Positions 2,222 through 36,533 of a stretch of 64,000 bases of DNA are shown here, piece after piece. Position 1 is the first letter of the stretch, and each line of letters opens with the position of its first letter. The DNA lies in the IMG/VR virus record IMGVR_UViG_3300045988_115849, one strand, 5' to 3'. A program made the translations under genes and the position numbers. The notes under the pieces are model-generated. The model had not been told where the DNA came from and did not search any database. It saw nothing but the letters and a program-made list of their open reading frames with translations. This stretch comes from a virus.

Positions 2222-3682
2222 ATGAATTTTGCACAAGCAGTGGAAAGAGAAACAAAGTTCACAAAGACAGAGAATGGAGCAGTTGCTTTGAATACTACAG
2301 GCAATGCATGTCTTGATTTGTATTCAACAATTGGAAGTCTTAGAGATGCAGAACTATCAAGAGTTCTATCCTTGTTTGACGAAGCGTACAAAGAAAATCC
2401 GTTACTTGCTACAAAAATCGTATTTTACGCAAGAGATGTAAGAGGTGGATTAGGAGAAAGAAAAGTTTTCCGCGATCTGATTCATCATATGGCTTGCGTA
2501 TACCCTGAAAGTATTAAAAATAACATTTATTGGATTCCTGAATATGGGCGTTACGATGATTGGTACGCATTGGTCGATACGCCTTTAGAACAGGATATGT
2601 GGAACCATATGAAATCACTGATGGTTGAAGATTTCAAAGACTACAACAATGGAAAACCAATATCATTATTGGCTAAATGGTTAAAGACCGCGGATGCAAG
2701 CTCTAAGAAAACAAGGGAGCTTGGAATTAAGACAGCACTTGGTTTTGGTATATCTGTTCGAAATTATAAAAGGATTGTCCGTAATCTTAGAAAATACTTA
2801 AAGATTACGGAAACATATATGTCTGCGAACAAATGGAACGAGATATCTTATCCATCAGTTCCTAGTAGATGTATGTTGAACAACCAATATGCTTTTTATC
2901 GTCATGATGCAGAAAGATTCCAACAGTACAAGGAAGATGTGTCAAACGGAAGGCAAAAGATCAATTCAAGTACACTGTATCCATATGATTTGATCAATGA
3001 AATTGATTCACCATACGAGAGCGATCATGCCATTGCAGAAGCACAGTGGAAGAATCTCCCGAACTATGTAGAACCGGGAAGAAACGTATTAGTTATGGCT
3101 GATGTATCAGGTTCCATGAATGGAAGACCTATGCAAACTTCTATAGGACTTGCAATATATTTTGCAGAAAGAAATATTGGTCCATATCATAATATGTTTA
3201 TGACATTTAGCGCTGACCCTAAATTTGTATCACTAAAAGGGGATACACTATACGAAAAATATAGAAATGTAATGTTTTCGGAATGGGGATTTAATACAGA
3301 CCTGAAAAAAGCATTTGATAAGATTTTGAAGATTGCGATTGATAATCATATAGATCAGGAAGAAATGCCAGAAGCACTTGTTGTCATTTCTGATATGGAA
3401 ATTGATCAGTGCACAAATGATAGTTGGACGTTTTATGATCAGATGGCTGATGAATTTAAAAAACATGGTTATAACATTCCTAACATTGTGTTCTGGAATG
3501 TTCAAAGTAGAAATAATGTTTTTCATGCTGACAGCAACCGAAAAGGTGTTCAGTTATGTTCTGGGCAGTCAGCATCAACATTTCAAAATGTCATTTCCGC
3601 AATTGGTCTTACGCCAATAGAAGCAATGGAAATGGTAATAAATTCAGAAAGATACGATAACATTTCGATTACCTCCAAATAA
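2222..3682 (+). CDS. DUF2828/TROVE-like + vWA protein (Ro60-related architecture)
   Basis: 486 aa. The N-terminus TENGAVALNTTGNACLDLYS...DVRGGLGERK matches the DUF2828 signature as I recall it. The C-terminal half has a vWA MIDAS-like DxSxS motif (MADVSGSM) and VVISDME. Confidence 0.75.
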   Translation: MNFAQAVERETKFTKTENGAVALNTTGNACLDLYSTIGSLRDAELSRVLSLFDEAYKENPLLATKIVFYARDVRGGLGERKVFRDLIHHMACVYPESIKNNIYWIPEYGRYDDWYALVDTPLEQDMWNHMKSLMVEDFKDYNNGKPISLLAKWLKTADASSKKTRELGIKTALGFGISVRNYKRIVRNLRKYLKITETYMSANKWNEISYPSVPSRCMLNNQYAFYRHDAERFQQYKEDVSNGRQKINSSTLYPYDLINEIDSPYESDHAIAEAQWKNLPNYVEPGRNVLVMADVSGSMNGRPMQTSIGLAIYFAERNIGPYHNMFMTFSADPKFVSLKGDTLYEKYRNVMFSEWGFNTDLKKAFDKILKIAIDNHIDQEEMPEALVVISDMEIDQCTNDSWTFYDQMADEFKKHGYNIPNIVFWNVQSRNNVFHADSNRKGVQLCSGQSASTFQNVISAIGLTPIEAMEMVINSERYDNISITSK

Positions 3683-3686
3683 GTTG

Positions 3687-3760
3687 TGGTATATAGCTCA
3701 ATTGGATAGAGCGCAACACTACGAATGTTGAGGATGCCAGTTCAAGTCTGGCTATACCAT
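3687..3760 (+). tRNA. tRNA-Arg (ACG)
   Basis: Hand-folded cloverleaf. Acceptor TGGTATA/TATACCA, D stem GCTC/GAGC, anticodon stem CAACA/TGTTG with loop CTACGAA, T arm GCCAG-TTCAAGT-CTGGC. Confidence 0.85.
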
Positions 3761-3966
3761 TTGTTCGCAATAGCGAACATAAAGTCCTTACTTTCTTAAA
3801 ATTATTTTAGTACGTATGTGAAATTCAAGCCAATGTTGCTGTTGACCGTTATAGCCGGGATGGATTTCTTTTTTTCATGGCAGATTTTTTCACCCTAACT
3901 GGTGAAAAGAAATGTTCGCCTTTAAGTAGGCAAAGATTTCACTCCTTACAATGTTTTTATTTTGTT

Positions 3967-4025
3967 TGCGTATCTGAATATGGTCAGTTTAGCCGGCTAA
4001 ACTCCGGCATACGCATTGTTTTTTT
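3967..4025 (+). terminator. Intrinsic terminator closing the tRNA/TROVE unit
   Basis: Stem TGCGTAT/ATACGCA enclosing the inner palindrome GTTTAGCCGGCTAAAC, followed by TTGTTTTTTT. Confidence 0.55.
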
Positions 4026-4048
4026 AGAATTGACAGGGGATTATAACA

Positions 4049-4267
4049 TTGAGTATGACAGAAATTATCAAAGAAATGAAAAATTATATGACAGAACCGA
4101 TTGAGGGAATGTCGTATGCAGAAAAGGATAAAGAAGGCAATGTTTGGATTCATTGCCCGTGGTGTGGAAAGAAGCAATTTCCTGTTAACCATGATACGAA
4201 AATTAGTCATTTGCAGTATAAATGCAAATCGTCAAACTGCAAAAAAATGTTTGAAATAAATTATTAA
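4049..4267 (+). CDS. Small Cys-rich zinc-ribbon protein (Cys_rich_KTR/Com-like, tentative)
   Basis: CPWCG...(18 aa)...CKSSNC motif pair. The start is uncertain (TTG 4049 or ATG 4055). Confidence 0.5.
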   Translation: MSMTEIIKEMKNYMTEPIEGMSYAEKDKEGNVWIHCPWCGKKQFPVNHDTKISHLQYKCKSSNCKKMFEINY

Positions 4268-4324: not shown

Positions 4325-6034
4325 ATGCAAGAAGGAAGTTTTGAATGGTATCAATCGGTCTTTAAGTCAATATTGGACGGACAGATGGATTTGTATGAAA
4401 ACCAGAATGATACATACCAATTGTTGCTCAACATGAAGCAAGAATTAACATTTAACAATAAAGAGGTCATGGACTATGCAATCAAGATAAGCAAGTATGC
4501 CCATGAAATGGCTGCATATATGGCAGCAACGACAGGAATGGCGGAATATGACGATCTATACTGGAAGTTTCTGCTTCTGGAAGGTCAGCATTATCAGGTA
4601 GATAGTGGTTTGCTATATCTTGAAAAGAACAGAGTACCTTCTGAGAGGTTCTACGAACCACGTAGATCGGTTTTTATGCAACACGGGATAATTCAATCAT
4701 TGCAAGATTTAATGGACGATAAATTGGACATATTTGCGTTAAGTGTTCCACCCGGTTGTGGAAAGTCAACACTGGAAGACTTTTTCTTATCTCTTGTTGG
4801 TGGTTGGTTTCCAAATTGTTTTAACTTATCTTCTGCCCATAGTAGCATTTTGACACGATCACTGTATGATGGAGTTCTTGAAATTATAAATGATCCAGTA
4901 GAATACACATGGCATGAGATTTTTCCGAATGTGCAGATGCAAGGAACAAACGCAAAAGAAACAACAGTAAACCTTGAAAGAAATGGCCGTTTCAAAACGT
5001 GGACGTTTCGTTCGATTGACGGATCGTTAACAGGTGCGACACGTTGTAATAAATTTCTTACCGCGGACGACTTGGTATCAGGAATTGAAGAAGCATTGAA
5101 TAAAAACCGACTGAAAACACTCTGGACGAAAGTTGCAAACGATTTACGATCAAGACGATTGGACGGTTGCAAAGAGTTCTATATTGCGACACGATGGAGT
5201 GTTCATGATCCGATTGGAAAGCTACAGACACTATATGCAGGTGATCCGAGAGCAAGATTTATTGCAGTACCGGCACTAAATGAAAAAGGCGAAAGCAATT
5301 TCATGTTTACTGTAAATGGATTCTCTAAAGAGTATTTTGAAGATGCAAGAAAAGCTATGGATGATATTTCGTTTAACTGTTTATACCAACAAAAACCAGT
5401 AGAGCGTGAAGGACTATTATTACCGGCGGATGAATTAAGAAGATTTTATCTTGAAAAACATCATGTTCCTGAGGGGGTATCCGGTTATACAGTATTTCCT
5501 AAAAAAGACCCAGATGCTATCTGGGGTGTCTGCGATACAAAAGATAAGGGAACCGACTTTGAATCCCTTCCGATTGCATATCAGTTTGGAGAAGATTTTT
5601 ATATACCGGATGTTGTATTTGACGATGAAACGAATTATGAAATTCTTGATAACAAGACAGCTGCAATTCTTATCAGACATCAACCACATAAGGTGCGCTT
5701 TGAATCAAACCAAGCCGGAGGAAGAATTGCAGATAATATAAGCAAAATGATCAAAGGCAAAGCAAGGACAATTATTGAACCAAAATACACAACAGCAAAT
5801 AAAGAAACCAAAATTTTGGTCAATTCAGATTGGATAAAGAAGCATTGCTTATTTTTAGAACCATCAGAATACCAAGTAAAGTCTGATTATGGAAGATTCA
5901 TGGAAAATGTAACTTCTTACACAACAAAGGCGAAGGTTCTGCATGATGATGGTCCTGACTCATTAGCTATGTTAGCAGAATTTGTATCAAAGCCAGAAGC
6001 ACGACAAAGTTATATCAGACAAAGTCCAGTTTAG
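4325..6034 (+). CDS. terL: Terminase large subunit
   Basis: 569 aa. Walker A-like PPGCGKST and Walker B-like FLTADDLVSG, with a C-terminal nuclease-like half. Lies upstream of the portal gene. Confidence 0.9.
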   Translation: MQEGSFEWYQSVFKSILDGQMDLYENQNDTYQLLLNMKQELTFNNKEVMDYAIKISKYAHEMAAYMAATTGMAEYDDLYWKFLLLEGQHYQVDSGLLYLEKNRVPSERFYEPRRSVFMQHGIIQSLQDLMDDKLDIFALSVPPGCGKSTLEDFFLSLVGGWFPNCFNLSSAHSSILTRSLYDGVLEIINDPVEYTWHEIFPNVQMQGTNAKETTVNLERNGRFKTWTFRSIDGSLTGATRCNKFLTADDLVSGIEEALNKNRLKTLWTKVANDLRSRRLDGCKEFYIATRWSVHDPIGKLQTLYAGDPRARFIAVPALNEKGESNFMFTVNGFSKEYFEDARKAMDDISFNCLYQQKPVEREGLLLPADELRRFYLEKHHVPEGVSGYTVFPKKDPDAIWGVCDTKDKGTDFESLPIAYQFGEDFYIPDVVFDDETNYEILDNKTAAILIRHQPHKVRFESNQAGGRIADNISKMIKGKARTIIEPKYTTANKETKILVNSDWIKKHCLFLEPSEYQVKSDYGRFMENVTSYTTKAKVLHDDGPDSLAMLAEFVSKPEARQSYIRQSPV

Positions 6035-6524: not shown

Positions 6525-6558
6525 GCATTTGTGGATGTATTTCCGCAGATGCTTTTTT
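6525..6558 (+). terminator. Intrinsic terminator between the 27-nt box and the portal gene
   Basis: 10-bp stem GCATTTGTGG/CCGCAGATGC (2 G.U pairs), 8-nt loop, then TTTTTT. Confidence 0.7.
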
Positions 6559-6584
6559 ATTGCGAAGAAAGAGGTGAAACGACA

Positions 6585-8147
6585 ATGGGTTTAGAAGCAA
6601 GACTGCTTGGAAGAACAAAAATCTATACAGATGAGACAATCATTGATGAAGATAACATATTATCAGTCTTGCGAAAAGCTTATGCAAAACACTTATTTAA
6701 TCGCAGACAGATGCAGTTTCTGATTGACTATGAAGGCGGACAGCAGCCATTAAAACGACAAAAAATAGTAAGACCAGACATTGACATAAAGGTTAATGGA
6801 AGTGTTGCAAACTACGTCAAAGAATTTAAGATTGGCTACAATTGGAGCAGCCCTATCATGTTGGTTCAACGTGGCGACAAGGAAATGCATGACTCTGATT
6901 CAAAAACGGATGATGCAGGAATCACTTCATTAAATGAGATTCTAACAAATGGAGAAAACATCGGTTATAAAGATCAGTGTATGGCAGAGTTTATTGAAAT
7001 CTGCGGTATCGGTCATAGAATGATCGACATTAAGACAGATTTTGACGATATGGAAGATGGTGAACCTGAATCTCTGGTAGATGTGTATACACTTGACTCC
7101 AGATATGCTTTTTGCGTATATAACAACGGGACAGGTCAGAAAAAAGTTTTAGGTGTTACATACAGGAAAGTTTCAGGAAAGCTGTATTTTACATGTTTTA
7201 CTAAAGAATACCGCTATGAGATTCAATCAGGTGAGGTCGTTTCAGTAGAAAAGAATCCACTGAAAGATATTCCGATTATTGAGTATGAAAGAAGTTTTGA
7301 CAGAACGGGATGCTTCGAAAGAAAGATTCCAGAAATTGATGCACTCAATATTTTAATGTCAGACTTTACGAATGATGTGTCACAGAGAACACAGGAAATA
7401 TGGTGGGGGAACGACATTAAGTTCCCAGTAGATGACGAAGGAAATGAGATTCAACCTAAAAGTGGTCAGTGGTTAGTAACATATTCAAATGAAAATGGAA
7501 AACCAAGTGTTCAACCACTTTCAAGCACATTTGATTCTGGCAGTACATTATCTGCTATTTCTGATTACCGCAGTAGAATCTTTCAGGATTGTAAAGTCCC
7601 TATTCAGTACGAAAGTTCTGGCAGCGGATCAACGGGGACAGCAACCGACATGAGTTCTGGATGGAGTGCAGCAGAATTGGATGCCATGAGAGAACAGCAA
7701 ATGACTGAGAAGGGCAAGAGAGAAGAAATTAAATTGATCCTAAGAGCGATTCAGTTAGTTCCTTCAAAAATTCTTCCTGAAGACAGCCCGATCAGAAAAA
7801 TACACAGTTCTGATATAGACTTTCATTTTAACAGAAGAAAGAATTATGACATGTCTGTTAAGGCAAACACTTTTGCTACATATGTGAGTCACGGAATCCA
7901 CGGAAGACACGCATTAAAGGTAGTTGACGCGTTTGGTGATGTGGAACAAGTTTGGAACGATAGTCAGGAAATGATTGAAAAATATCAGGAATCTTTGTGG
8001 AAAACATCTGATAGTAGCAGCACTTCAACCATAGGAGATACTGGTAGCAATACATCAGAAAAGATTCAAGGCGATACATCTGATCAGACAGGAAACTCGC
8101 CGATATTAGATGGATTGAATACAGACTCAAATAAGATTCAGGCATAA
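6585..8147 (+). CDS. Portal protein (SPP1 gp6-like)
   Basis: Large ORF after terL with portal-like central motifs. I moved the start from GTG 6531 to ATG 6585, because the upstream codons span the terminator and RBS AGAGGTGA precedes 6585. Confidence 0.85.
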   Translation: MGLEARLLGRTKIYTDETIIDEDNILSVLRKAYAKHLFNRRQMQFLIDYEGGQQPLKRQKIVRPDIDIKVNGSVANYVKEFKIGYNWSSPIMLVQRGDKEMHDSDSKTDDAGITSLNEILTNGENIGYKDQCMAEFIEICGIGHRMIDIKTDFDDMEDGEPESLVDVYTLDSRYAFCVYNNGTGQKKVLGVTYRKVSGKLYFTCFTKEYRYEIQSGEVVSVEKNPLKDIPIIEYERSFDRTGCFERKIPEIDALNILMSDFTNDVSQRTQEIWWGNDIKFPVDDEGNEIQPKSGQWLVTYSNENGKPSVQPLSSTFDSGSTLSAISDYRSRIFQDCKVPIQYESSGSGSTGTATDMSSGWSAAELDAMREQQMTEKGKREEIKLILRAIQLVPSKILPEDSPIRKIHSSDIDFHFNRRKNYDMSVKANTFATYVSHGIHGRHALKVVDAFGDVEQVWNDSQEMIEKYQESLWKTSDSSSTSTIGDTGSNTSEKIQGDTSDQTGNSPILDGLNTDSNKIQA

Positions 8148-9562: not shown

Positions 9563-9952
9563 ATGGCAAGAGGAGATATGAAAGTAGATGTTCTTTCAGT
9601 TTCTAATGAAGTTGAAATTTTAAACAGAAAAGAATTTGAAGCAATTCCAAATACAGTAGACTTTGATGGTGTAGAAACCAAAGACGATTTAGGTAGAAAA
9701 GTTGTAAAAGCCGGTACTCCAATTGGAAAAGATGGAGCACCAATTAAAGCTACACCTTGGACTGGCGCTGTTGGAATTTTACTTCATGATGCTTATGAAA
9801 CAAGACCGCAGCAGGCAGTTTTAAAGAAAGCATATGTAAATACGACAAGAGCACAGAAAAATTCTGGATTAACATATGATCTTGCATTAGTTACAGAGTT
9901 AGAAAAGTCTGGATGCAGAATCGTATTAGAAGAACCAGAAGTCTTAGCATAA
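9563..9952 (+). CDS. Putative head decoration or accessory head protein
   Basis: 129-aa ORF between the scaffold and major capsid genes. No firm family. Confidence 0.35.
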   Translation: MARGDMKVDVLSVSNEVEILNRKEFEAIPNTVDFDGVETKDDLGRKVVKAGTPIGKDGAPIKATPWTGAVGILLHDAYETRPQQAVLKKAYVNTTRAQKNSGLTYDLALVTELEKSGCRIVLEEPEVLA

Positions 9953-9958
9953 GACAAA

Positions 9959-10019
9959 TACCGGTTATTAGAAAAGATAGATAATCGCTAACCCTCAATA
10001 GTTACAGGGTAGAAAGGAG
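9959..10019 (+). promoter_or_regulatory. Conserved two-hairpin structural-gene leader, copy 1 (capsid)
   Basis: TACC, then P1 (GGTTATT/GATAATC), then GCTAACCCTCAATAGTTACAGGGTAGAAAGGAG. The 36-nt 3' part is identical to 13851-13886. Confidence 0.6.
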
Positions 10020-10025: not shown

Positions 10026-11096
10026 ATGTTATTAACAGACGTTTTTTCAGCGGAAGCAGTAGCACTCGCTAGAACTTCTGATGTAAGTAATTCCATGGCA
10101 TATGCCGGACTTGCTTTTTTCCCAAATAAAAAGAAAACTGGAATTGACCTGAAATGGATCAAAACACATAAAGGTCTTGGAGTTGCATTAAAACCATCTG
10201 CATTTGATGGTATGGCAACAATCCGTGCAAGAAAAGGATTCAAAGTGACAAATGAAGAAATGCCACTTTTTCGTGAATCTATGGTTGTAAAAGAACAGGA
10301 TTTAGCAGAGATCACAAGAGCTCAGGAATCCAATGATCCATACCTTAATGAAGTTTTATCTCATATCTATGATGATACAAACGAGTTAATTGATGGTGCT
10401 GATATTGCAGCCGAACGCATGAGAATGCAGTTACTTGCACCAGTAGGCGGAGATATGAAAATTGTAATCGGTACAGCTGACAATGTAGCTTACAATTACA
10501 GTTATGATCCGAACGGCGATTGGAAAGCAAAACATTATGCATCTTTAGAAGGGACAAGCACATGGGATAAAGCGGATACATCCAAACCATTAAACGATAT
10601 TCAGAAGGGTATTGATTACCTGACAAGTATCGGTGTCTCACCTATGTATGCAATGATGACTTCAAAAACATTTAACTATCTGATTGAAAACTCTCAGATC
10701 AAAAATGCTATTATTACAATTTCTGGAAGAACAATTGATTTTGTATCTAAACAAGTTGTAAAAGAAGTGTTCCAGTCTCAGACAGGACTTATCCCAATTT
10801 TATACGATAAGAAGTTTGAGGACTATGACGGTAAAGATAAGAGCTTCTATCCTGATGATTATGTAACAATCATCGGTGAAGGACAGCTTGGTAATACATG
10901 GTATGGAGTGACACCAGAGGAAAGAACATTACTTGGTGATCCTAGTGTAGATGTAAGTGTCCTTGATGATACAGGAGTTGCAATTGCTGTTAAATCTGAA
11001 TACGGACCACCAGTATCTTATTCAACTACTGCTTCTCAGATTGTTCTCCCATCTTTTGAAGGCATGGACAGCATTTATGTTATGAAAGTAAAATAG
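10026..11096 (+). CDS. Major capsid protein (lambda E / Phage_cap_E-like, tentative)
   Basis: 356 aa after the scaffold gene, with a strong RBS and the conserved leader upstream. Sequence resembles E-type capsid proteins. Confidence 0.75.
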   Translation: MLLTDVFSAEAVALARTSDVSNSMAYAGLAFFPNKKKTGIDLKWIKTHKGLGVALKPSAFDGMATIRARKGFKVTNEEMPLFRESMVVKEQDLAEITRAQESNDPYLNEVLSHIYDDTNELIDGADIAAERMRMQLLAPVGGDMKIVIGTADNVAYNYSYDPNGDWKAKHYASLEGTSTWDKADTSKPLNDIQKGIDYLTSIGVSPMYAMMTSKTFNYLIENSQIKNAIITISGRTIDFVSKQVVKEVFQSQTGLIPILYDKKFEDYDGKDKSFYPDDYVTIIGEGQLGNTWYGVTPEERTLLGDPSVDVSVLDDTGVAIAVKSEYGPPVSYSTTASQIVLPSFEGMDSIYVMKVK

Positions 11097-12146: not shown

Positions 12147-12548
12147 ATGCGATCAAGGCAAAGAGACAAGCAAAATATATGGTTTTCGAAAATTTCAGAA
12201 AATCATGATGATATAGATACTGTCATTACTTATGAAAAGCCGATCATGAAAAAAATGACCGTATCATCTACAAGTGGTACTGCGGAAGAAATATCAGCGG
12301 GTATTGTTCCGAACTATGATCGCTATATTACAAGTTATGACAGATCGTTTTGCGATTATGCAGAAGAAGGTGTCGTATGTTGGGTGGATTCAGAACCAGA
12401 ATTTAATCAAGATGGGTCATTGAGAATGGAAGATGATGAAATAACGCCAGTGACAATGCCAGATTATAAGATTTTGAAAATAATTGACACAAAAAAAGGA
12501 AATATCGCAAGGTATGGAATTAGCAAAATCAAAGGAGTGTATCAATGA
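12147..12548 (+). CDS. Head-tail joining protein (putative head closure)
   Basis: 133 aa. Assigned from its position in the connector module. Stop overlaps the next start. Confidence 0.4.
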   Translation: MRSRQRDKQNIWFSKISENHDDIDTVITYEKPIMKKMTVSSTSGTAEEISAGIVPNYDRYITSYDRSFCDYAEEGVVCWVDSEPEFNQDGSLRMEDDEITPVTMPDYKILKIIDTKKGNIARYGISKIKGVYQ

Positions 12549-13829: not shown

Positions 13830-13886
13830 AACCGGTCATGAAAAATCATGATCGCTAACCCTCAATAGTTACAGGGTAGAAAGGAG
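13830..13886 (+). promoter_or_regulatory. Conserved two-hairpin structural-gene leader, copy 2 (major tail)
   Basis: AACC, then P1 (GGTCATGA/TCATGATC, loop AAAA), then the identical 36-nt box ending in AGGAG, 7 nt before ATG 13894. Confidence 0.6.
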
Positions 13887-13893: not shown

Positions 13894-14379
13894 ATGAGTG
13901 GTGTAGCCGGAATAAGTACAGTCGGTGTAAAAGTTGGATATGCAGTAGAAACTACAGCAGGAACAAAACCGGCAAAATTTAAACAGCTTCATCGTATCAA
14001 TGCCACGGATGATATTGGAATTGATACAGAGACAATCGATGCATCAGCATTAGAAGATGAAGTTGATAAAGAGATTGCAGGTAGAGGGTCAACAGGTGGA
14101 ACATTTAATGTCACTGTCAACTTAACGAACGAGACAGTTAAAGAATGGGAAACTTTGATCAGTGAATACAAAACAGGAAAAGCAGCAGGAAAAGCCGTAT
14201 GGTATGAAGAATATTACCCGGCACTTGATAAGGCATATTTCACAAAGATTGAGCCACCAGCACAGTTACCTAAGCCGGGGCTTGATCAGAATGGATTAGC
14301 AACCGTTGAAATGACATTGACAATCAACGAGTATGTCGGTCTTGATACCGCAGTAGAACCAGACGATACAGAAGTGTAA
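13894..14379 (+). CDS. Major tail protein
   Basis: 161 aa, with a strong RBS and the conserved leader upstream. Sequence is typical of siphophage major tail proteins. I prefer ATG 13894 to TTG 13888. Confidence 0.75.
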   Translation: MSGVAGISTVGVKVGYAVETTAGTKPAKFKQLHRINATDDIGIDTETIDASALEDEVDKEIAGRGSTGGTFNVTVNLTNETVKEWETLISEYKTGKAAGKAVWYEEYYPALDKAYFTKIEPPAQLPKPGLDQNGLATVEMTLTINEYVGLDTAVEPDDTEV

Positions 14380-14881: not shown

Positions 14882-15246
14882 TACTTGATACATTGTTTCC
14901 TCAGGCTGTAAAAGCCGGAATGACAAAAGATGAATTTTTTCACTCCACTCCAAAAGAAATTGGTGTATACATAAATGCATACAAAGAACAGAAAGAATAT
15001 GAATTGAAAAGTACAAATTATCAATCATGGTTAACAGGTTCTTATGTGTTGCAAGCGATTAATTGTGCTTTTTCTAAAAATGGGAATTATCCAGAAAACC
15101 CATTGCTAAAAGAAGAAAAAAGTATTGAATCAATTGAAAAGAGAAGTGGAAGAAGTAAAGAAGAAATGCAACAAGAATTAAGACTTATGGAACTCAGAGT
15201 TATGCAAGCAAATGCAAATATAGAAAAGATAGGGGCAGACGAATGA
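14761..15246 (+). CDS. Tail chaperone -1 frame extension (GT-like fusion part)
   Basis: The -1 frame is open from the slip site. The track ORF 14893-15246 has only a TTG start and no RBS, consistent with expression by frameshifting. Confidence 0.55.
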   Translation, partial: FFRSNRSEQDVRDRTRTEERTKETSGSQKENSESRSYREIILDTLFPQAVKAGMTKDEFFHSTPKEIGVYINAYKEQKEYELKSTNYQSWLTGSYVLQAINCAFSKNGNYPENPLLKEEKSIESIEKRSGRSKEEMQQELRLMELRVMQANANIEKIGADE

Positions 15247-15266
15247 TTCTGCCCTTTATTTTTTTA
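15233..15266 (+). terminator. Intrinsic terminator overlapping the chaperone stop codon
   Basis: Stem GGGCAGA/TCTGCCC, 8-nt loop, then TTTATTTTTTT. Confidence 0.7.
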
Positions 15267-15317
15267 TACCGGCTGACCGTATGAGATCAGCCGCTGACCT
15301 TATTAGTTGGAGGTGAA
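15267..15317 (+). promoter_or_regulatory. Structural-gene leader, copy 3 (tape measure; variant)
   Basis: TACC, then P1 (GGCTGA/TCAGCC), then GCTGACCTTATTAGTTGGAGGTGAA, 5 nt before ATG 15323. Confidence 0.55.
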
Positions 15318-15322: not shown

Positions 15323-18300
15323 ATGCCAGATAGTACAATAGAAACACTCGATATACAAGTGAAAAGTTCGACTGCCAGAGCTGTTACAGCACTTGATAAT
15401 TTGGCAAACAAATTATATGACGTGAGCAAAGCATTTAAGTCCGTAGATACTGGAAGTATGAGAAACTATTCTCGTGAGATAGGCAGGGTTTCTTCGTCTT
15501 TAAAATCAATGAGTGGTATCAAAATCAATGTACCTAAATTATCTGGTCTTAGTAAACAGTTACAGTCATTAACAAATGTTAATTTTACCGCCTTAAATGC
15601 AAGTTCAAAACCATTAAAAGAATTGGCTTCTGGACTGAATGCTTTAAAAGGCGTTTCAGGTGTTACGATACCAAAGCTAGATTATAAAAATATCAATTCA
15701 GTTTCCAAAGCAATTGAAAAGATAGGAAAATTAGATACTGGAAATATTCAAAATTCTGTGAATGGAATATCAAAAGTATCTCATGCAATGTCAGTTTTAA
15801 ATAACGTTGATTTTAGCGACAGCAAAATATCTTCTGTTATTAACTCTATCAGAAAATTAATGGCAGTTGATACAAAAGGTTTTGATACGCAGATTTTTGA
15901 CAGTATTTATAAGTCTGTGTCTAAACTTGGAAATCTTCCGGATGTTTCATCAAGTATCAATAGACTTGTTGCATCATTAGCTAGATTAATCAGTTCTGGA
16001 AATAATACTGGTATAGTTGCAAGTAAGCTTCCGGCGGTAGGAAATGCAATAAAGCAAACTGCAAATAAATTAGCATCTGTTAAAGGTGTTGAAGAATCAA
16101 TAAATCAATTCATATCAGCGTTAGCGAGTCTATCTTCTGCCGGCAAAAAAGTAGAATTAAGTGCTAACGGACTACAAATAATGGCAAAAGAACTTTTGTC
16201 ATTTTTCAATACCATGTCTAAAGCACCGGCTGTTAGTAAGAATACAGTAGAAATGACAAAGGCGTTGGCACAATTAGCAGCATCAGGCGGTAGAGTTAGT
16301 AGTGCTGTCAATACAATGAATACTTCTTTCGGAAAATTAAAGAACGGATTTTCTGAATTAGCAAGCTTAGCATCCAGAGCTGGGTCTGCTGTAAGTAGTG
16401 GTATTGGTAAAATGGTAAATGCTATTCGAAATATTGGGTCAGCAAGTGGAAGTATTTCAACCGTAAATTTCAGCTTAAAAAATCTTATTCAAACAGCTAT
16501 TGGATTTAAGGCGGTACAAGCATTTGGACAATTTACAAAGGATGCAATAACGTTAGGATCGGATATAACAGAAGCAGAAAACGTAATTGATGTTTCTTTT
16601 GGTAAATTAAAATACAAAGCGTATGATTTTGCTTCAACAGCTTCAAAGCAGTTTGGAGTATCTGAGTTGGCAGCTAAAAGATACACAGGAACCATAATGG
16701 CAATGTTGAAGTCATCAGGTGTCGCCCAAAATGCAGCATCCGACATGTCAGTAGCATTAGCCGGATTAGCGGGTGATATTGCATCTTTTTATAATATAGA
16801 TACTGATACAGCATTTTATAAAATCAGGGCAGGTATTTCTGGTGAGATTGAACCATTAAAGCAATTAGGTATTAACATGTCTGTTGCAAATATGAGTGCT
16901 TATGCTTTGGCAAACGGAATTACAAAGTCGTGGACTTCTATGACTCAGGCAGAACAGGCTACATTGAGATATAACTATTTAATGTCTGTAACAAAAGATG
17001 CACAGGGCGATTTTGCTCGTACTGCCGGTACTTGGGCAAACCAAGTACGTTTATTAAAATTAAACATTCAGTCATTATCAGCTGTTATGGGTCAAGGAAT
17101 TATTGCAGCTGTACTTCCGGCAATTAAAGCATTAAACGCTTTAATGAGCAGGCTTATGCAAGCAGCTAATATGTTCAGAAACTTTATGTATGTTCTGATG
17201 GGAAAAAAGATAAAAGGAGCAACAAAAGGTGTTGTAAATGATCTTGGTGGAGTTGGCGATTCTGCTACTGATCTTTCAGGACTTGGAAGTGCCGGAAACG
17301 ATGCATCTAAAGGGATGAACAAAGCATCTAAGGCAGCGAAAGAATTAAAGAAGACCTTATCCGTTCTGCCGTTTGATGAATTGAATCAGTTGAATGACAA
17401 TAAGCAATCAAGCGATACTGGATCTGGAGGAGGTGCAGGTGGTTCTGGAAGTGGCGGTGGAGTCGGCGGTGGAATTGGCGGACTCGGTGATTTGAGTGGT
17501 CTTGAAGATGAAGATTATGAAACACCAATTAGTCATTGGGCTTCAAGAATCAGAAAAGCATTTCTTGATAATAATTGGTATGGTGTTGGCCGTGAGATCG
17601 CAAATATGTTAAATGCCGGTCTGCAATTAGCCTATGATGCACTTGATTGGAAGAATGTTGGCCCTAAAATCACATCATTTACAACAAAATTTACTCAGGC
17701 AATCAATGGATTCCTTGATAATTTCGATTTTAAGTTATTAGGTAAAGTAGTTGGTGCAGGGATTACGGATGTAGTGAGAGCATTTAATCAAATTGCATCT
17801 CCTGATGGTGGTATAAACTTCAAAACTCTAGGTACTGGCATTGCAGAAAGTTTAAAAGGAATGATTCAGGAAATTCCATGGACAGAGTTAGGAAATGCAC
17901 TCGGAAACTATTTTATGATCTCATGGAGAATCTTAAACGGATTCTTGAATCAATTAGCAGCAACAGATAATACAGGCTTAACAGGATTTCAGCAAATCGG
18001 CGTTGCTCTTGGAAAAGCTGTAAATGGTATGTTCCAATCCATCGACTTCGCAACTATCGCAGATACATTTGCAGTAGGAATCAATGGAGTTTTTTCTATA
18101 CTTGGAAAAATCAATGAAACTGTACATTGGTCTGATATTGCAGCAAATATTTCTCACGGGATTAATACTTTTATCACCGGAGTTAACTGGGAAGAAAATG
18201 GACAAATATTAAGCACTTTTGTAAAAAATCTTCTTGGAGTATTTTCACAGGTAGCGCAAAATACAGACTGGGCAGGACTTGGAAAAGGCATTGGAACATT

Positions 18301-19936
18301 CCTAAGTAGTATTGATTGGAGTGGAATATTCGGAGAAGTATTTACAACAATCAAAACAATATTAGGTGGACTTATCTCAGGATTAGGAACCACAATCGAA
18401 GGAAAGTTTATTATAGCTTTTGGTGCTATTAAACTTGTTACAGCAGTGGATAAAATTGTAAGCCCTATACTTTCGGCGTTTGGTTTAATACCTAAAGAAG
18501 TAGATGGATCGTCTTCTTTATTAATCATAGCATTAAAGAAAATGGCAGGAGCTTTTTCAAAATCTACATTAGGTACTGCGATTGGAACGTATGTTTTGGA
18601 TGCGATTAGCCTTTTAAAAGGCATTCCGGGGAAGATTACAACAGATGTTGCACCGAAGATCGCGGAAGTTATTTCAACAAAATTATTTCCAAAAGCGGTT
18701 TCATTTGCAGGTGGAATTGTATCATGGGTAACAGGTACGTTTGCACCAGCTGTATCAGCTGCATTTAGCAGTGTTCTTGGCGTGCTGTTCTCACCGATTG
18801 GATTAGCTATAGTTGGAGTAATCGTTGGTGGATTTTTAATATACAAAAACTGGGGTGCAATATCTAAGTTTATCGGAAACGTAAAAGAGAATATTGTGAA
18901 TGGATTTAACAGCGCCGGAGAATGGTTAAAGGAAAAAGGGAAAAACCTTATTGAAGGCTTGCGCAATGGATGGGAAAGTGCAAAATCTGGTTTCGGAACA
19001 GCTGTTAGCACAATCGGCAAATTTATTAAAGAGAAAGTTGGAAACGCCGGTGAATGGTTGAAAGAAAAAGGGCAGGATGCAGTCGAAGGTATCCGTAGTG
19101 GATGGGAGTCTGTAAAAGAAAGCAAAGTCGGTCAGGCAGCCGCAGGTATCGGAAATTACATCAAAGGTAAAGTCACTGGTGCTGAGAATTGGTTGGTTGA
19201 AAAAGGTAAGCAAGCTGTCAATGGGATGAAAAACGGTTGGGAGAACGTGAAGAACGGAAACTTCCAATCAACCGTAAAAGGATTAAAGAGTTTTACGGTA
19301 AATACATTAGCAAACACATCTCCGGCAGCATGGTTGGTTGCCAAAGGAGCAGAAGCTATGAAAGGTATGCTTTCTGGATTAAAAGGAGATAAATGGACAG
19401 ATGCTAGAAACTGGTTGAAAAAGTTACCGAGCAATGTAAAAAATGCCGTTGGAGATATGTATAAAGTTGGGCAAAATATCATTAAGCAGTTTATTAATGG
19501 TTTTAAATCTTTACGTATTCCAACACCTCATATTTCTTGGGGAACAAAAGACTTTAATTTTGGTGGAATGAGCTTAAGCATACCAACTAAATTTAAAGTA
19601 GATTGGTATAAAAAAGGTGGATTATTTGATTCTGCATCCGTGATCGGTGTCGGTGAAGCCGGATCAGAAGCTGTATTACCACTTGAAAATCCAAAAACTA
19701 TGAAGATGATCGCAGATAGTATCGTTGGTAATTCCGGCGGTATGGTTGATGAAAGTATCATTGCTGATGCTGTAGAACGTGGAGTAGTTGTTGCTATGAT
19801 GAACAATAGCGGAAATCAACCAGATATAAACTTATACGCAACATTATATACAGAAGATAACGAAGTTCTTGCAAGGTCTGTTGCAAAAGGACAAGCAAGA
19901 AATAATTACAGATTAAAACCATCAAGTGCATATTGA
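15323..19936 (+). CDS. Tape measure protein
   Basis: 1537 aa, helical and repetitive, with a Gly-rich tract and C-terminal approx 40-aa repeats (AGEWLKEKG..AVEG.R.GWE). Confidence 0.9.
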   Translation: MPDSTIETLDIQVKSSTARAVTALDNLANKLYDVSKAFKSVDTGSMRNYSREIGRVSSSLKSMSGIKINVPKLSGLSKQLQSLTNVNFTALNASSKPLKELASGLNALKGVSGVTIPKLDYKNINSVSKAIEKIGKLDTGNIQNSVNGISKVSHAMSVLNNVDFSDSKISSVINSIRKLMAVDTKGFDTQIFDSIYKSVSKLGNLPDVSSSINRLVASLARLISSGNNTGIVASKLPAVGNAIKQTANKLASVKGVEESINQFISALASLSSAGKKVELSANGLQIMAKELLSFFNTMSKAPAVSKNTVEMTKALAQLAASGGRVSSAVNTMNTSFGKLKNGFSELASLASRAGSAVSSGIGKMVNAIRNIGSASGSISTVNFSLKNLIQTAIGFKAVQAFGQFTKDAITLGSDITEAENVIDVSFGKLKYKAYDFASTASKQFGVSELAAKRYTGTIMAMLKSSGVAQNAASDMSVALAGLAGDIASFYNIDTDTAFYKIRAGISGEIEPLKQLGINMSVANMSAYALANGITKSWTSMTQAEQATLRYNYLMSVTKDAQGDFARTAGTWANQVRLLKLNIQSLSAVMGQGIIAAVLPAIKALNALMSRLMQAANMFRNFMYVLMGKKIKGATKGVVNDLGGVGDSATDLSGLGSAGNDASKGMNKASKAAKELKKTLSVLPFDELNQLNDNKQSSDTGSGGGAGGSGSGGGVGGGIGGLGDLSGLEDEDYETPISHWASRIRKAFLDNNWYGVGREIANMLNAGLQLAYDALDWKNVGPKITSFTTKFTQAINGFLDNFDFKLLGKVVGAGITDVVRAFNQIASPDGGINFKTLGTGIAESLKGMIQEIPWTELGNALGNYFMISWRILNGFLNQLAATDNTGLTGFQQIGVALGKAVNGMFQSIDFATIADTFAVGINGVFSILGKINETVHWSDIAANISHGINTFITGVNWEENGQILSTFVKNLLGVFSQVAQNTDWAGLGKGIGTFLSSIDWSGIFGEVFTTIKTILGGLISGLGTTIEGKFIIAFGAIKLVTAVDKIVSPILSAFGLIPKEVDGSSSLLIIALKKMAGAFSKSTLGTAIGTYVLDAISLLKGIPGKITTDVAPKIAEVISTKLFPKAVSFAGGIVSWVTGTFAPAVSAAFSSVLGVLFSPIGLAIVGVIVGGFLIYKNWGAISKFIGNVKENIVNGFNSAGEWLKEKGKNLIEGLRNGWESAKSGFGTAVSTIGKFIKEKVGNAGEWLKEKGQDAVEGIRSGWESVKESKVGQAAAGIGNYIKGKVTGAENWLVEKGKQAVNGMKNGWENVKNGNFQSTVKGLKSFTVNTLANTSPAAWLVAKGAEAMKGMLSGLKGDKWTDARNWLKKLPSNVKNAVGDMYKVGQNIIKQFINGFKSLRIPTPHISWGTKDFNFGGMSLSIPTKFKVDWYKKGGLFDSASVIGVGEAGSEAVLPLENPKTMKMIADSIVGNSGGMVDESIIADAVERGVVVAMMNNSGNQPDINLYATLYTEDNEVLARSVAKGQARNNYRLKPSSAY

Positions 19937-19975
19937 TTTGTGTAAAACTTTATGCTATGATGAATTTAAGTTAAG

Positions 19976-20035
19976 AGACATACACAGGATGCAAAGGTCA
20001 TGAAGACCACACAATCCTGTGTATGTCTTTTTTTA
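19976..20035 (+). terminator. Strong intrinsic terminator after the tape-measure gene
   Basis: 15-bp stem AGACATACACAGGAT/ATCCTGTGTATGTCT with an inner GGTC/GACC stem, then TTTTTTT. Confidence 0.85.
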
Positions 20036-20046
20036 TTTTAATAATT

Positions 20047-20118
20047 ACAGCAAACTAGCCATCGTGTGCCGGCGAAAAGAACGTCTTTCCTCGTGTACGT
20101 TCCGTTTGCTGTTTTTAT
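20047..20118 (+). terminator. Second terminator-like long-range hairpin
   Basis: ACAGCAAAC/GTTTGCTGT closes a 48-nt loop and is followed by TTTTTAT. Confidence 0.4.
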
Positions 20119-20171
20119 ATTTTAACATGAGGGTGCACACGTTAATGTTCAAATAACCACGAGGTGATAAT

Positions 20172-21200
20172 ATGAGTAAGAAATTAGATTTATTTTTCAA
20201 AAGTAACGTATTAGTAATCAATCCTGATCTTGCAAAAATGATTGGCTTAAATGAAGCAATCGTTCTGAATCAAATCTATTATTGGATTTCCGTAAATAAA
20301 AAACAGAACAGAAATTTCCACGATGGTAAATATTGGTGCTATAACTCTATCAGAGAGTGGCAGGAAGAAAATTTTCCGTTTTGGTCACATAAGACCGTTG
20401 AGCGTATTTTTTATAGTTTACGCAACAAGGGTCTTGTTTTAGTGGGAAATTATAACAATCGTCGTAATGGTTCTACATCTACAAAGTGGTATACAGTAAA
20501 CGATGAGGTTTTAGAAGAAATCATTGATCAGATTTTAGACGAACCAGAATCAGACCATACAGTTAGACAGAATAACTTTGAAAGCGACAACTTGACCGAA
20601 GCATTACCAGAGACTAACACAGATATTAACAATGCTTTATCTAACGATAAAGATTATGCTTTTTTATCAACAGAAGATAAAGATAATAATGATGTGTGTA
20701 GAGATAAAAAAGACTTCATGCCTATTTCTGGGAGAAATAAGGTCAAAATCATAAAGAGAAAGGGAAATAAAACTACTCTTAGTCAGACAATTGAAGATAA
20801 AATCCATTTAGGTTTTAGAGTCAATCAAGAGTTTGACGATGATTTGTATAACAATTCAAAAGATGAATGTGTAATCGGAGATATTGTTAAATACTTTTTC
20901 AAAAAATATCAGTTGGAGAAAGGAACAGACCATCCAATGATCTCTGACGAAAAATGCGTAGAGTTGGTTGAGAAGTTTTATTTTGTTCCTGAGAATATGC
21001 AAGACACAGAACTGGATTTTGATTTATACAAACTTATGATTGATAAATACTTTGCAACAGAATATGGCAAAAATAGCGGATTCACAATTAATTACCAGAT
21101 CATGCACTTTATGAATTATAAAATCCGTGAAAATCTATTCTACAAAGTTCAGGATGAATACTATGACAATGTTAAGAGTGATTATCCTGTTGAGATATAG
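20172..21200 (+). CDS. Winged-helix (DnaD / RepA_N / replisome-organiser-N-like) protein with unknown C-terminal domain
   Basis: 342 aa. N-terminal LAKMIGLNEAIVLNQIYYW...KTVERIFYSLRNKGLV...KWYTV resembles a winged-helix domain. This is followed by an acidic linker. RBS GAGGTGA upstream. Confidence 0.5.
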   Translation: MSKKLDLFFKSNVLVINPDLAKMIGLNEAIVLNQIYYWISVNKKQNRNFHDGKYWCYNSIREWQEENFPFWSHKTVERIFYSLRNKGLVLVGNYNNRRNGSTSTKWYTVNDEVLEEIIDQILDEPESDHTVRQNNFESDNLTEALPETNTDINNALSNDKDYAFLSTEDKDNNDVCRDKKDFMPISGRNKVKIIKRKGNKTTLSQTIEDKIHLGFRVNQEFDDDLYNNSKDECVIGDIVKYFFKKYQLEKGTDHPMISDEKCVELVEKFYFVPENMQDTELDFDLYKLMIDKYFATEYGKNSGFTINYQIMHFMNYKIRENLFYKVQDEYYDNVKSDYPVEI

Positions 21201-21227
21201 AATCATCAAAGAAAAGGAGAAGAAAAG

Positions 21228-21782
21228 ATGAAAAATACAACATGGAAAATACCATTGATTGTTCTAGCTGCGATTGTAGCAATAGCGTTAGTTGGCATAT
21301 TTATGATTCACATACCACAGAATCATGCAAATTCGATGGAAGAACAGATAATGGAATCAAAGGCGGCAATTAACGTTCAGGAAAAGAGAAGACAGGATTT
21401 AGTGTATAATCTGGCAGACAGTGTGAAATCTTACAACAAACATGAAGCCGAAACACTGAAAAATATTGTTAAAGAGAGAAGTTCAAATACCGGGAAAATT
21501 GAAAGTACAGGTACAGCGATTGCAGCAATAAAAGAATCTTATCCAGAATTAAAAGCTGACAAGAATTATCAACGGCTTATGAAAGAATTAGCAGTTACAG
21601 AGAATAAGATTTCTGACGTAAGAGACAATTACAATCAGCAGATCAAAGAATACAACAGATATGTCGTGAACTTTCCAGTGAACTTTTTCTTGAAACTGTT
21701 AGGATACAAACAGAAAACATATCAATATTTAAAATTTGAGGATGCAACAGAGACAGCACCGCAGAATTTATTTAGTGAGTAG
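21228..21782 (+). CDS. lemA: LemA family membrane protein
   Basis: N-terminal TM, then VQEKRRQDLVYNL...ESYPELKADKNYQRLMKEL..TENKIS..R..YN...KEYN, which are typical LemA motifs. Confidence 0.85.
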   Translation: MKNTTWKIPLIVLAAIVAIALVGIFMIHIPQNHANSMEEQIMESKAAINVQEKRRQDLVYNLADSVKSYNKHEAETLKNIVKERSSNTGKIESTGTAIAAIKESYPELKADKNYQRLMKELAVTENKISDVRDNYNQQIKEYNRYVVNFPVNFFLKLLGYKQKTYQYLKFEDATETAPQNLFSE

Positions 21783-21785
21783 CCT

Positions 21786-22538
21786 ATGAGAAAATTCAAA
21801 GGATTTCAGTTTGATACTTTTGAAATAACTCCACGAGAGATTATAGCAAGCGTTGTTATTGTTGGATTAATGTTTCTGATTGGCTTTACTATCAGTGGGA
21901 AAATTGATAATTACATCATGGATCAGAACGAAGAATATAATCGTGCTGCAAAAATTGAAAGCAATGATCTTTTTCAGTATGGGATGGAAACAGACTTGGG
22001 CAATGCATTTGTTTATGGGAAGATAGAGCCGGTTGATACAGTTACATACAAAGAAATTGGTGGTAAGTATTATTATATCAGGAAGATCAGAGAAGAATAT
22101 CGCAGACATGAAAAAACCGAAAGAGTTAAAGACAGCAAAGGAAAAGTTCATTACAAAAAGAAAGTCTGGTATTCATGGGATGATGTATGGAGAGAAAGTA
22201 GGACTTGTAAAAAGATTAAATTTGCAGGCAAGAAATTCAAGGAAGATAAGATTAACTTCATGGGAGGTCATTATCTAAAAAGAATTTATCATACTTCTCG
22301 TGTCAGGTATGAATACTATGGTATGGAAGCAAAGCCCGTTAAGGGAACTGTTTACACAAAGCTAAAAAATAATACTATGACAAGCTGTGATTTGAATAAG
22401 TCAAATCTAAAAGACACAGTTGAATCATACAAAACAAGTGGTGGAGTTTGTAAAATTCTGTTTTGGGTATTCTGGATCACTGGGACAGGGTTAGCGGTGT
22501 TCGGATTTTATTATTTGGATAATCATTGGTTAGAGTAG
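21786..22538 (+). CDS. Two-TM membrane protein (LemA partner; GIDE-like architecture, tentative)
   Basis: 250 aa. N-terminal TM (IIASVVIVGLMFLIGFTISG) and C-terminal TM (ILFWVFWITGTGLAVFGFYYL) flank a Lys-rich domain. Confidence 0.5.
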   Translation: MRKFKGFQFDTFEITPREIIASVVIVGLMFLIGFTISGKIDNYIMDQNEEYNRAAKIESNDLFQYGMETDLGNAFVYGKIEPVDTVTYKEIGGKYYYIRKIREEYRRHEKTERVKDSKGKVHYKKKVWYSWDDVWRESRTCKKIKFAGKKFKEDKINFMGGHYLKRIYHTSRVRYEYYGMEAKPVKGTVYTKLKNNTMTSCDLNKSNLKDTVESYKTSGGVCKILFWVFWITGTGLAVFGFYYLDNHWLE

Positions 22539-22549
22539 GAGGATATGAT

Positions 22550-22765
22550 ATGATCAAAAAAATTAGAAAAAATAAATTAGCTGTATCAATTATTGCAGTA
22601 ATCTTGGGAATGATCATAGTTTTTGCGGTCAATTTTGGAATTGTCAATTTTGTTTTGTGGTTGCTACAGTTTATTGTTGCAAAGCCTTTGGTTGTGACAT
22701 TAAAAGGAAAAGCAGCAGCTACTGTATTGTTAACACTTGTTGTACATATTTTTAGCCGCAAATAA
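22550..22765 (+). CDS. Small two-TM membrane protein
   Basis: 71 aa. I chose ATG 22550, which lies 7 nt after GGAGG. Confidence 0.5.
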   Translation: MIKKIRKNKLAVSIIAVILGMIIVFAVNFGIVNFVLWLLQFIVAKPLVVTLKGKAAATVLLTLVVHIFSRK

Positions 22766-22789
22766 GACCACATGATACACAATAAGACC
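22763..22789 (+). promoter_or_regulatory. 27-nt box TAAGACCACATGATACACAATAAGACC (copy 2)
   Basis: 24 of 27 positions identical to 6461-6487. The first TAA is again a stop codon. TAAAAT lies 18 nt downstream (22808-22813) and TATAAT is at 22801-22806. Confidence 0.5.
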
Positions 22790-22819
22790 AAAGAGTATTG
22801 TATAATATAAAATTATAAA

Positions 22820-22847
22820 ACGTCTATCGAGAACGATAGGCGTTTTT
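22820..22847 (+). terminator. Intrinsic terminator after 27-nt box copy 2
   Basis: 10-bp stem ACGTCTATCG/CGATAGGCGT (1 G.U pair), loop AGAA, then a T-run. Confidence 0.7.
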
Positions 22848-22855: not shown

Positions 22856-22908
22856 TACGGTCAATAAAAGCGAAAATTGATCGCTAACCTTAAATAGTTG
22901 GAGGTGGA
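22856..22908 (+). promoter_or_regulatory. Structural-gene leader, copy 4 (Dit-like gene; variant)
   Basis: TAC, then P1 (GGTCAAT/ATTGATC), then GCTAACCTTAAATAGTTGGAGGTGGA, 6 nt before ATG 22915. Confidence 0.55.
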
Positions 22909-26727: not shown

Positions 26728-26740
26728 TGTAGGGGGATAT

Positions 26741-35200: not shown

Positions 35201-35317
35201 GTTCCATCGGTGTTCCAATGTTCCATTTGCGTTCCATGATTTCAAAAAAATATTAAGATACCATCTCACTACCTTGTTCCATTTTTTGTTCCATGCTTTG
35301 TTCCACTTTTTGTTCCA
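35201..35317 (+). repeat. Eight direct GTTCCA arm-type repeats
   Basis: GTTCCA at 35201, 35212, 35220 and 35231 (intergenic). Four more at 35276, 35288, 35300 and 35312, exactly 12 nt apart, lie inside the integrase 3' end. One inverted copy is at 35153-35158. Confidence 0.75.
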
Positions 35318-36431: not shown

Positions 36432-36533
36432 TGTATCACTCCTTAATTCTAAAAAATAGGTATAAAAATAACAGCTACGCAATTCCTAAAATTGGAATTT
36501 GCATAAAACGCAAAATGGTTAAAATTTTACGAC

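Follow-up and report, generated by a model that had tools for sequence, protein, structure and literature searches.

In Bacillus subtilis, a 5' stem-loop together with ribosome binding stabilizes mRNAs, as PMC5737220 and references listed in PMC3997798 describe. The Firmicute stabilizers, namely the aprE leader, the cryIIIA STAB-SD, and the strong Shine-Dalgarno sequence (SD) of hbs, have hairpins followed by a very strong SD with complementarity to the 3' tail of 16S rRNA. This study concerns an RNA element of about 55-60 nt, formed of two hairpins (P1 and P2), which adjoins the ribosome-binding sites of four virion-region genes in a 64,000-nt stretch of viral DNA, IMG/VR record IMGVR_UViG_3300045988_115849 (hereafter the window). 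Its structure, conservation, covariation, strand, position, and fixed register with the SD are established, and its identity as a selected, uncatalogued RNA structure is well supported. The element resembles the Firmicute stabilizers in placing hairpins before such an SD, and one of its variants, group III, carries an SD-like AGAGG that, as in STAB-SD, is not followed by a start codon. In contrast to the stabilizers, which sit at mapped transcript 5' ends and have no sequence core common between genes, the element is internal to operons and has an invariant core.

Phage elements provide further points of comparison. HK022 put, with two adjacent stem-loops, and lambda nut, with a hairpin and a conserved single-stranded box (as in rrn boxB-boxA), are repeated in the phage genome upstream of terminators. 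A pair of hairpins 1-3 nt apart recalls put; those of the element are 3 nt apart in the window, where each copy is also 5' of the next terminator, a likeness in topology only. However, put and nut follow closely on promoters and have no SD joined to them. The element has no sequence similarity to boxA (CGCUCUUA against CGCUAACC), and we recognized no N-like or Q-like protein among the window open reading frames scanned. The RNase III sites of T7 are likewise repeated, structured intercistronic signals in polycistronic mRNA, 5' of highly expressed genes, but are irregular duplexes of ~20 bp, compared with 7-9 bp for P1 and 4-6 bp for P2. The PeSL cassettes of T4-type phages (PMC2839356, PMC4122927) share with the element a short length, repetition at gene boundaries and, in the few cases examined, positions flanking small accessory genes and ties to insertions, deletions, and hybrid junctions. 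PeSL consists of an early promoter and a terminator stem-loop and acts on transcription, whereas the element has no promoter and no U run past its hairpins, and is wired to the ribosome-binding site.

The initial annotation, made from the sequence alone, did not recognize the motif, and database comparison agrees. Scanning the whole window with Rfam 15 (4227 models) at gathering thresholds yielded two tRNAs only, and scans around copies 1-4 at E<=10 gave nothing above sub-threshold noise; FuFi-1, for instance, scores 18.6 bits against a gathering threshold of 59.6, mostly on a terminator. The sole Rfam family with any resemblance to copy 1, again below threshold (13.9 bits; gathering 49), is Mu-gpT-DE (RF03012), a candidate cis-regulatory hairpin directly 5' of a phage major head gene whose 3' arm runs into the SD and start codon. 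This match spans only P2 and the SD, without P1 or the CUAACC core, and the element is not a member of the family. Mu-gpT-DE belongs to enterobacterial Mu-like prophages, unlike the host range described here for the element. Literature searches with the core sequence as a string matched irrelevant primers only, and the text of a human-microbiome catalogue of predicted structured RNAs (PMC8040213) contains no description of the motif. Both that catalogue and its viral counterpart (PMC10690425) may nevertheless hold the motif anonymously.

All four copies in the window are on the sense strand, and each is followed by a start codon 5-7 nt downstream (Table 1). Their locations, as initially annotated, were confirmed by reading the sequence and by scanning the 64-kb window, on both strands and with filters off, using a covariance model (R2) built from 37 variants out of related phages. 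The scan returned exactly four matches, with E values of 8e-20 to 3e-12, and a next best E value of 0.3. The four copies are part of the R2 seed, and the informative part of the scan is that there is no fifth match; given that R2 finds these four and nothing else better than E 0.3, chance is excluded. The proposed common layout is found in every copy: AC, P1 (7-9 pairs, with a loop of 4-10 nt), a C-U-(A/G) linker, P2 with a 5' arm that begins ACC, and the SD. The P1 arms pair as originally listed but were drawn one pair short, since the last C of "ACC" and the initial G of "GCT" form a further pair. For the second stem, ACCCT/AGGGT is correct for copies 1 and 2, while copies 3 and 4, given as ACCT/AGGT, were found to have ACCTT/GAGGT. 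Copies 1 and 2 do share the reported identical run of 36 nt. Both P1 and P2 are present within the minimum-free-energy fold of copies 1-3 (ViennaRNA). The upstream gene's stop codon (9950-9952) lies ahead of copy 1, and the gaps upstream of the element-bearing genes measure 73, 90, 76, and 376 nt; most other late genes overlap their neighbor or are separated from it by <=27 nt.

Selection on an RNA structure, as first suggested, is borne out in related phages, where both stems are maintained through many compensatory changes; examined in homologous regions, as the initial annotation had proposed, both helices covary strongly. In a sequence-only MAFFT alignment of 37 distinct variants, picked by a descriptor requiring pairing, 94.7% of cells at the 13 proposed pairs are standard pairs, compared with 75% after shuffling of the 3' partners and 26-48% after sliding them by 1-3 columns. 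Double-change cells number 90, against 22 in the shuffles, and RNAalifold independently predicts the same two helices. A second alignment, of 54 distinct rows that include non-seed copies and are fitted to the structure of the model, has 95.2% pairing cells (71% shuffled, 28-47% slid), with 0 of 500 shuffles reaching the observed values and double changes in 11 of the 13 pairs. Changes are seen in near-invariant pairs as well: the closing C-G of P1 is replaced by U-A, and ACC/GGU of P2 by ACU/AGU or AUU/GAU. The way in which rows were picked or fitted raises a worry of pairing bias in both alignments. This is removed by a sequence pattern under which the helix interiors are unconstrained: 51 of its 58 distinct matches hold both helices (P1 of >=7 pairs and P2 of >=4 pairs), while shuffled interiors give 3.7 P1 pairs, of which the pattern itself accounts for 3, and 0.27 P2 pairs. 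At the third pair of P1, 45 of the 54 copies have a G.U wobble. As a conserved G.U corresponds to an A.C mismatch on the opposite strand, selection acts on the sense strand, that is, on RNA.

The constant parts of the element are the 5' AC, the lower P1 stem (C-G, G-C, and the G.U wobble), the CU(A/G) linker, and ACC...GGU at the base of P2, together with (A/G)UUA at the 3' end of the A-rich P2 loop and, often, GA at the 3' end of the P1 loop. A 9-bp block, TCGCTAACC, is highly conserved. The upper stems and loop lengths are variable, and the distances between conserved blocks differ by <=10 nt. Complementarity between the P1 and P2 loops, of the kind expected for a kissing loop or pseudoknot, is no better than for permuted partners (3.50 vs 3.52).

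The same core is connected to the SD in at least three ways, here termed exposed, masked, and switch wirings. In most copies, AGAAAGGA(G) begins immediately past P2, at a distance of 0 nt; in others, P2 contains the GAGGU of GGAGGUG. The exposed wiring, in which P2 adjoins the SD, is the version found at capsid and tail-tube genes. Its extended SD, AGAAAGGAG, also serves element-free window genes at 9563, 13070, and 33878. The 3' end of Bacillota 16S rRNA reads 3'-UCUUUCCUCC; AGAAAGGAG is an exact complement of this 3' end, taken as a general Bacillota sequence that may differ from the host's own, and both AGAAAGGAG and GGAGGUG are complementary to its 3'-UCUUUCCUCCACUAG. In the masked wiring, P2 has as its 3' arm GAGGU, the core of the SD GGAGGUG, paired with an anti-SD-like ACCUU or ACCUC. 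Copy 3 is masked because its P2 3' arm falls within the SD in this manner, and the same wiring is seen in copy 4 and in the tape-measure copy of the related phage MT835477. A rule that the SD is always masked 5' of tape-measure genes holds for the window and MT835477 and fails in the L067 group. In the switch wiring, which belongs to a terminase leader, an AGAGG adjoining P2 and the true SD, GCGGAGGUG, can each pair with an anti-SD-like CACUUCUGC. The pairing of AGAGG with CACUUCUGC produces a hairpin that is followed by a U run in many variants, while in some, such as L067, the run is missing. The switch leader was observed in L089 (9866-9965) and in the group III relatives L067, L133, L134, and L170, and the changes among these variants keep both pairings. 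An intrinsic terminator was rejected as the identity of the element itself: P1 is followed by CUAACC and P2 by AGAAAGG or GAAUU, with no U run, and a terminator scan flags only separate hairpins.

Table 1. Copies of the element and other features of the window (positions in nt; P1 arms in brackets)
Feature	Position	Strand	Context or content	Parts	R2 E value
Copy 1	9960-10019	+	5' of major head gene 10026-11096 (ATG 10026; PHROG 29 major head protein)	AC 9960-9961; P1 9962-9969/9980-9987 (CGGTTATT/GATAATCG), loop 9970-9979; CUA 9988-9990; P2 9991-9995/10006-10010, loop 9996-10005; extended SD AGAAAGGAG 10011-10019	8e-20
Copy 2	13831-13886	+	5' of probable major tail gene 13894-14379 (ATG 13894)	P1 13833-13841/13846-13854 (CGGTCATGA/TCATGATCG); CUA 13855-13857; P2 13858-13862/13873-13877; SD 13878-13886	1.5e-19
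Copy 3	15268-15315	+	5' of tape-measure gene 15323-19936 (ATG 15323)	P1 15270-15276/15287-15293 (CGGCTGA/TCAGCCG); CUG 15294-15296; P2 15297-15301/15310-15314; SD GGAGGUG 15309-15315	3.1e-12
Copy 4	22856-22906	+	5' of DUF6711 gene 22915-23277 (ATG 22915), first gene past inserted three-gene cassette	P1 22858-22865/22876-22883 (CGGTCAAT/ATTGATCG); CUA 22884-22886; P2 22887-22891/22901-22905, within SD GGAGGUG 22900-22906	5.6e-14
Intrinsic-terminator-like hairpin	15231-15266	+	Followed by U run; copy 3 begins 2 nt past U tract		
Terminator-like hairpin	22817-22846	+	13 pairs including A/U tracts, then U run; closes cassette, 10 nt 5' of copy 4		
Inserted cassette (moron)	19933-22816	+	Between tape-measure and DUF6711 genes		
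Cassette: sigma-70-like promoter	19933-19961				
Cassette: DnaD-like gene	20172-21200				
Cassette: LemA gene	21228-21782				
Cassette: PHROG 3886 gene	21786-22538				
Large terminase	4325-6034		Head/packaging		
Portal	6531-8147		Head/packaging		
Major head protein	10026-11096		Head/packaging		
Tape measure	15323-19936		Tail		
Tail proteins	23281-33230		Tail		
Endolysin	34146-34901				
Integrase	35253-36482	-	Lysogeny/replication		
Ant			Lysogeny/replication		
RecT			Lysogeny/replication		
DnaD/DnaC-like			Lysogeny/replication		

A nucleotide search of GenBank phages gave no match, and relatives were collected via the capsid protein. The nearest GenBank record, MT835477, is an unannotated 84.7-kb human-fecal phage with a 71% identical capsid, and contains exactly three copies, 5' of its capsid, tail-tube, and tape-measure genes. 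MT835739, a 46-kb phage of another type, has two full copies, 5' of the capsid and tail-tube genes, and a remnant consisting of P2 only 5' of the tape-measure gene. Two sequence-pattern scans of IMG/VR gave at least 120 matches each, and in a pattern scan in which each species was represented by a single genome, the element turned up in prophage-like regions of seven metagenome-assembled genomes (MAGs), namely five of Lachnospiraceae, one of Bacillota, and one labeled Muribaculaceae. The element is common in human-gut phage contigs and Lachnospiraceae prophages, and its occurrence in prophage-like regions of Lachnospiraceae MAGs makes a member of this family the most likely host of the window phage.

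Across 82 capsid-anchored loci, presence of the element is patchy, and every match is on the gene strand. Loci with capsids 56-57% identical to that of the window have zero copies, while loci with 50% identical capsids have copies, absent from the R2 seed, 5' of terminase, tail-tube, and tape-measure genes. The major head proteins encoded downstream belong to four unrelated families (PHROGs 29, 247, 544, and 422), the major tail proteins to PHROGs 158, 88, and 3099, and the other downstream genes encode tape-measure proteins, a large terminase, and small accessory or inserted proteins. Given that so many unrelated families are represented, the element tracks gene function and position rather than ancestry. 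Specificity for the most abundant structural mRNAs, as first envisaged, was not upheld, because the element is also located 5' of low-copy genes, namely those for the tape measure, the DUF6711 protein and, in relatives, the large terminase, as well as 5' of small inserted genes. Two gene labels are also affected. The gene downstream of copy 4, initially called Dit-like, encodes a DUF6711/PHROG 1194 protein that nothing marks as Dit; the "major tail" label of 13894-14379 is based on weak PHROG matches together with its position ahead of the tape-measure gene.

With moderate confidence, we read the element as a portable, cis-acting, post-transcriptional leader of Lachnospiraceae phages, a self-contained cassette for ribosome entry that would set ribosome loading and probably mRNA stability, with the SD wiring scaling the output. 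Effects on translation, on stability, and of any partner are what we infer from the architecture described above. The element appears to sit at late genes for which translational coupling to the preceding gene is unavailable, and P1 and P2 would fold the 55-70 nt spacer into a compact, insulated structure, with the base of P2 (ACC...GGU) ending exactly where the SD starts. In the capsid and tail-tube version, the 9-nt SD would be single-stranded beside the A-rich P2 loop, favoring strong 30S loading. In the tape-measure and DUF6711 version, pairing of the SD core GAGGU within P2, combined with the upstream terminator, would give low output, and in the terminase version the AGAGG adjoining P2 may compete with the true SD for the anti-SD segment. 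A 30S subunit bound tightly beside two 5' hairpins could furthermore shield the downstream cistron from 5'-to-3' decay, as in the aprE leader and STAB-SD. The invariant core (AC, CGG/UCG with its G.U, CUA, and ACC/GGU) is probably where a factor shared by the hosts of these phages recognizes or cleaves the RNA.

Three observations weigh against this leader model. First, copies 3 and 4 lie directly behind strong terminators, and the supply of mRNA from upstream is unexplained by such a leader; with these terminators directly preceding both copies, the mRNA that reaches them must stem from read-through or antitermination. The order of terminator, then element, 5' of a tape-measure gene recurs in two other lineages (L001, 34120-34236; L067, ~12150-12238). 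Second, a plain structural spacer would not need an invariant AC and CUA, a conserved G.U, and a semi-conserved GA in the P1 loop; conservation of these nucleotides suggests a specific partner. Third, tape-measure copies of the L067 type have an unmasked SD adjoining P2, and masking for low-copy proteins is not universal. The relationship between wiring and protein copy number is consequently only a rough one.

It is tempting to go further and regard the core as a dedicated receptor for a trans-acting partner, which might be the 3' end of 16S rRNA (with the SD:anti-SD helix completing a three-way junction as its third arm), a protein of host or phage, or RNA polymerase, or as a catalytic fold of its own. 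The element would then represent a new class of riboregulator with interchangeable platforms, programming virion-protein stoichiometry and timing across unrelated Lachnospiraceae phages. We put this forward tentatively, as a bold proposal that is less probable than the leader model.

Among the rival explanations, the one that survives best, although we consider it rather unlikely, is that a trans-acting regulator binds to the P1-P2 core. This regulator could be a late phage protein, a host RNA-binding protein, or RNA polymerase, as for HK022 put or lambda N/nut, and its binding would switch late genes on or render the polymerase resistant to termination. Invariance of the unpaired nucleotides and of the G.U is consistent with such a site, and a single core attached to three expression platforms is reminiscent of riboswitch aptamers. 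Antitermination in particular would suit the placing of each window copy 5' of the next terminator, the terminators ahead of copies 3 and 4 that late transcription must cross, the group III arrangement in which the core is followed within 3 nt by a U-run hairpin ahead of the terminase SD, and the resemblance of two hairpins 1-3 nt apart to put. However, the near-universal 0-nt contact with the SD is unexpected for an antitermination site, and the U run past the group III hairpin is missing in some variants, among them L067. No RNA polymerase, sigma factor, antiterminator, or RNA-binding regulator was recognized among the window open reading frames scanned. Apart from tail proteins, a nuclease, and an XRE repressor, the window and two relatives have just one small protein in common, although three genomes are too few for this to mean much. 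CsrA was rejected as the partner, as a GGA in the P1 loop is not conserved, occurring in about one third of variants (~11 of 37) and in 0 of the 4 window copies.

The small protein common to these three element-bearing, otherwise dissimilar genomes is encoded at 63342-63620 in the window, at 17506-17889 (minus strand) in L319, and at 3689-4147 in MT835477. It matches PHROG 16126/17690, has no Pfam match, and is the sole shared protein that is not structural, a repressor, or a nuclease.

A role at the level of DNA is far less probable. Under this explanation, the element would serve a phage-directed polymerase as promoter, act as a signal in priming or recombination, or chiefly be a mobile cassette whose repeats drive module shuffling in the manner of PeSL. 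Copies 3 and 4 follow terminators, where a restart of transcription makes sense, and the 9-bp block is highly conserved. A sigma-70 promoter was nevertheless rejected: in the ~180 nt ahead of each copy no predicted site ends, no sigma-70-like site is present at any copy, and the spacing of the conserved blocks, which varies with the loops by <=10 nt, is incompatible with a two-block promoter. Nor was a polymerase or sigma gene recognized in the scan described above. A transcript begun downstream of the conserved block could not form the covarying P2, because the 5' arm of P2 starts inside that block, and, read from the other strand, the conserved G.U would become an A.C mismatch.

The shuffling component of this explanation deserves separate treatment. 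On the minus strand of L133 (7187-6079), four copies are found within 1.1 kb, flanking small inserted genes upstream of the terminase gene. These genes encode a nucleoside 2-deoxyribosyltransferase-like protein and a small membrane protein. One of the copies is a truncated hybrid joined to sequence flanking another copy, an arrangement suggestive of recombination at the repeats. In the window, copy 4 forms the right edge of an insertion; in MT835477, which lacks the cassette, a DUF6711-type gene directly follows the tape-measure gene, and there is no element there. The copies in L133 flank inserts and copy 4 borders an insertion lacking in MT835477, and thus, in the few cases examined, repeats of the element mark module exchange and probably promote it, a behavior with precedent in PeSL (PMC2839356, PMC4122927). 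Recombination at repeats is, however, likely a by-product, and leaves the covariation unexplained.

Just as improbable as the DNA-level role is an RNA processing signal, either a new small self-cleaving ribozyme or an endoribonuclease target cut beside P1 to separate the cistrons and leave a hairpin-protected 5' end: the size, the variable stems with conserved junction and loop nucleotides, the multiple copies, and the phage context recall small ribozymes and T7-type sites, and several copies lie between a 3' hairpin (terminator) and the next cistron, but no ribozyme family was matched at E<=10 around copies 1-4, loop-loop complementarity does not exceed the permuted controls, and a P1 of 7-9 bp is too short for a classical RNase III site. 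An 11-nt likeness to the pistol ribozyme (UUAAAUAGUUG) is unsupported by any Rfam match and was rejected.

The remainder of the window is that of a temperate siphovirus-like gut phage (Table 1), and contains several features of separate interest. At its start (1-331), a 330-nt non-coding stretch without a copy of the element lies upstream of the putative small terminase gene; this stretch carries A/T-rich repeats and, close to its beginning, a terminator-like hairpin with a T run, and might contain the late promoter or the packaging site. Positions 2222-3682, located between the genes for small and large terminase, encode a 486-residue protein with DUF2828 and DUF7788 domains, a match to PHROG 850 ("RNA-binding protein"), and a Ro60/TROVE-like appearance. 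The gene is tightly flanked by genes for tRNA-Met (1975-2048) and tRNA-Arg (3686-3761), an arrangement that recalls Ro/Y-RNA modules; no Y-RNA-like Rfam match was found. In the early region, the protein encoded at 41208-41705 contains the C-terminal DNA-binding domain of Spo0A (E 1.5e-8); such a regulator is unusual in a phage whose host is spore-forming or of the Clostridia type. A cluster of genes that are likely counter-defense or accessory encodes a PAPS-reductase-like protein (46408-47688), a Tad2-like Thoeris anti-defense domain (47633-48370), a metallo-beta-lactamase protein with a weak Apyc1-like match (49341-50141), and a SocA/Panacea antitoxin domain (62141-62629).

Phages need hundreds of capsid and tail-tube subunits and few tape-measure and tail-tip proteins, all produced off one long late transcript, and how these ratios of virion proteins are set in phages of Gram-positive bacteria is poorly understood. 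The element described here is one small RNA module, horizontally shared among unrelated phages of a dominant gut bacterial family, with exposed, masked, and switch wirings that roughly track the downstream gene. If it tunes translation or stability, it would provide a compact handle on virion-protein stoichiometry and a ready-made expression part for the genetically difficult Lachnospiraceae; if its core binds a partner, it would represent a new class of riboregulator. Whichever reading holds, the element has good support as a candidate new Rfam family and can serve as a marker of late structural modules in gut viromes.

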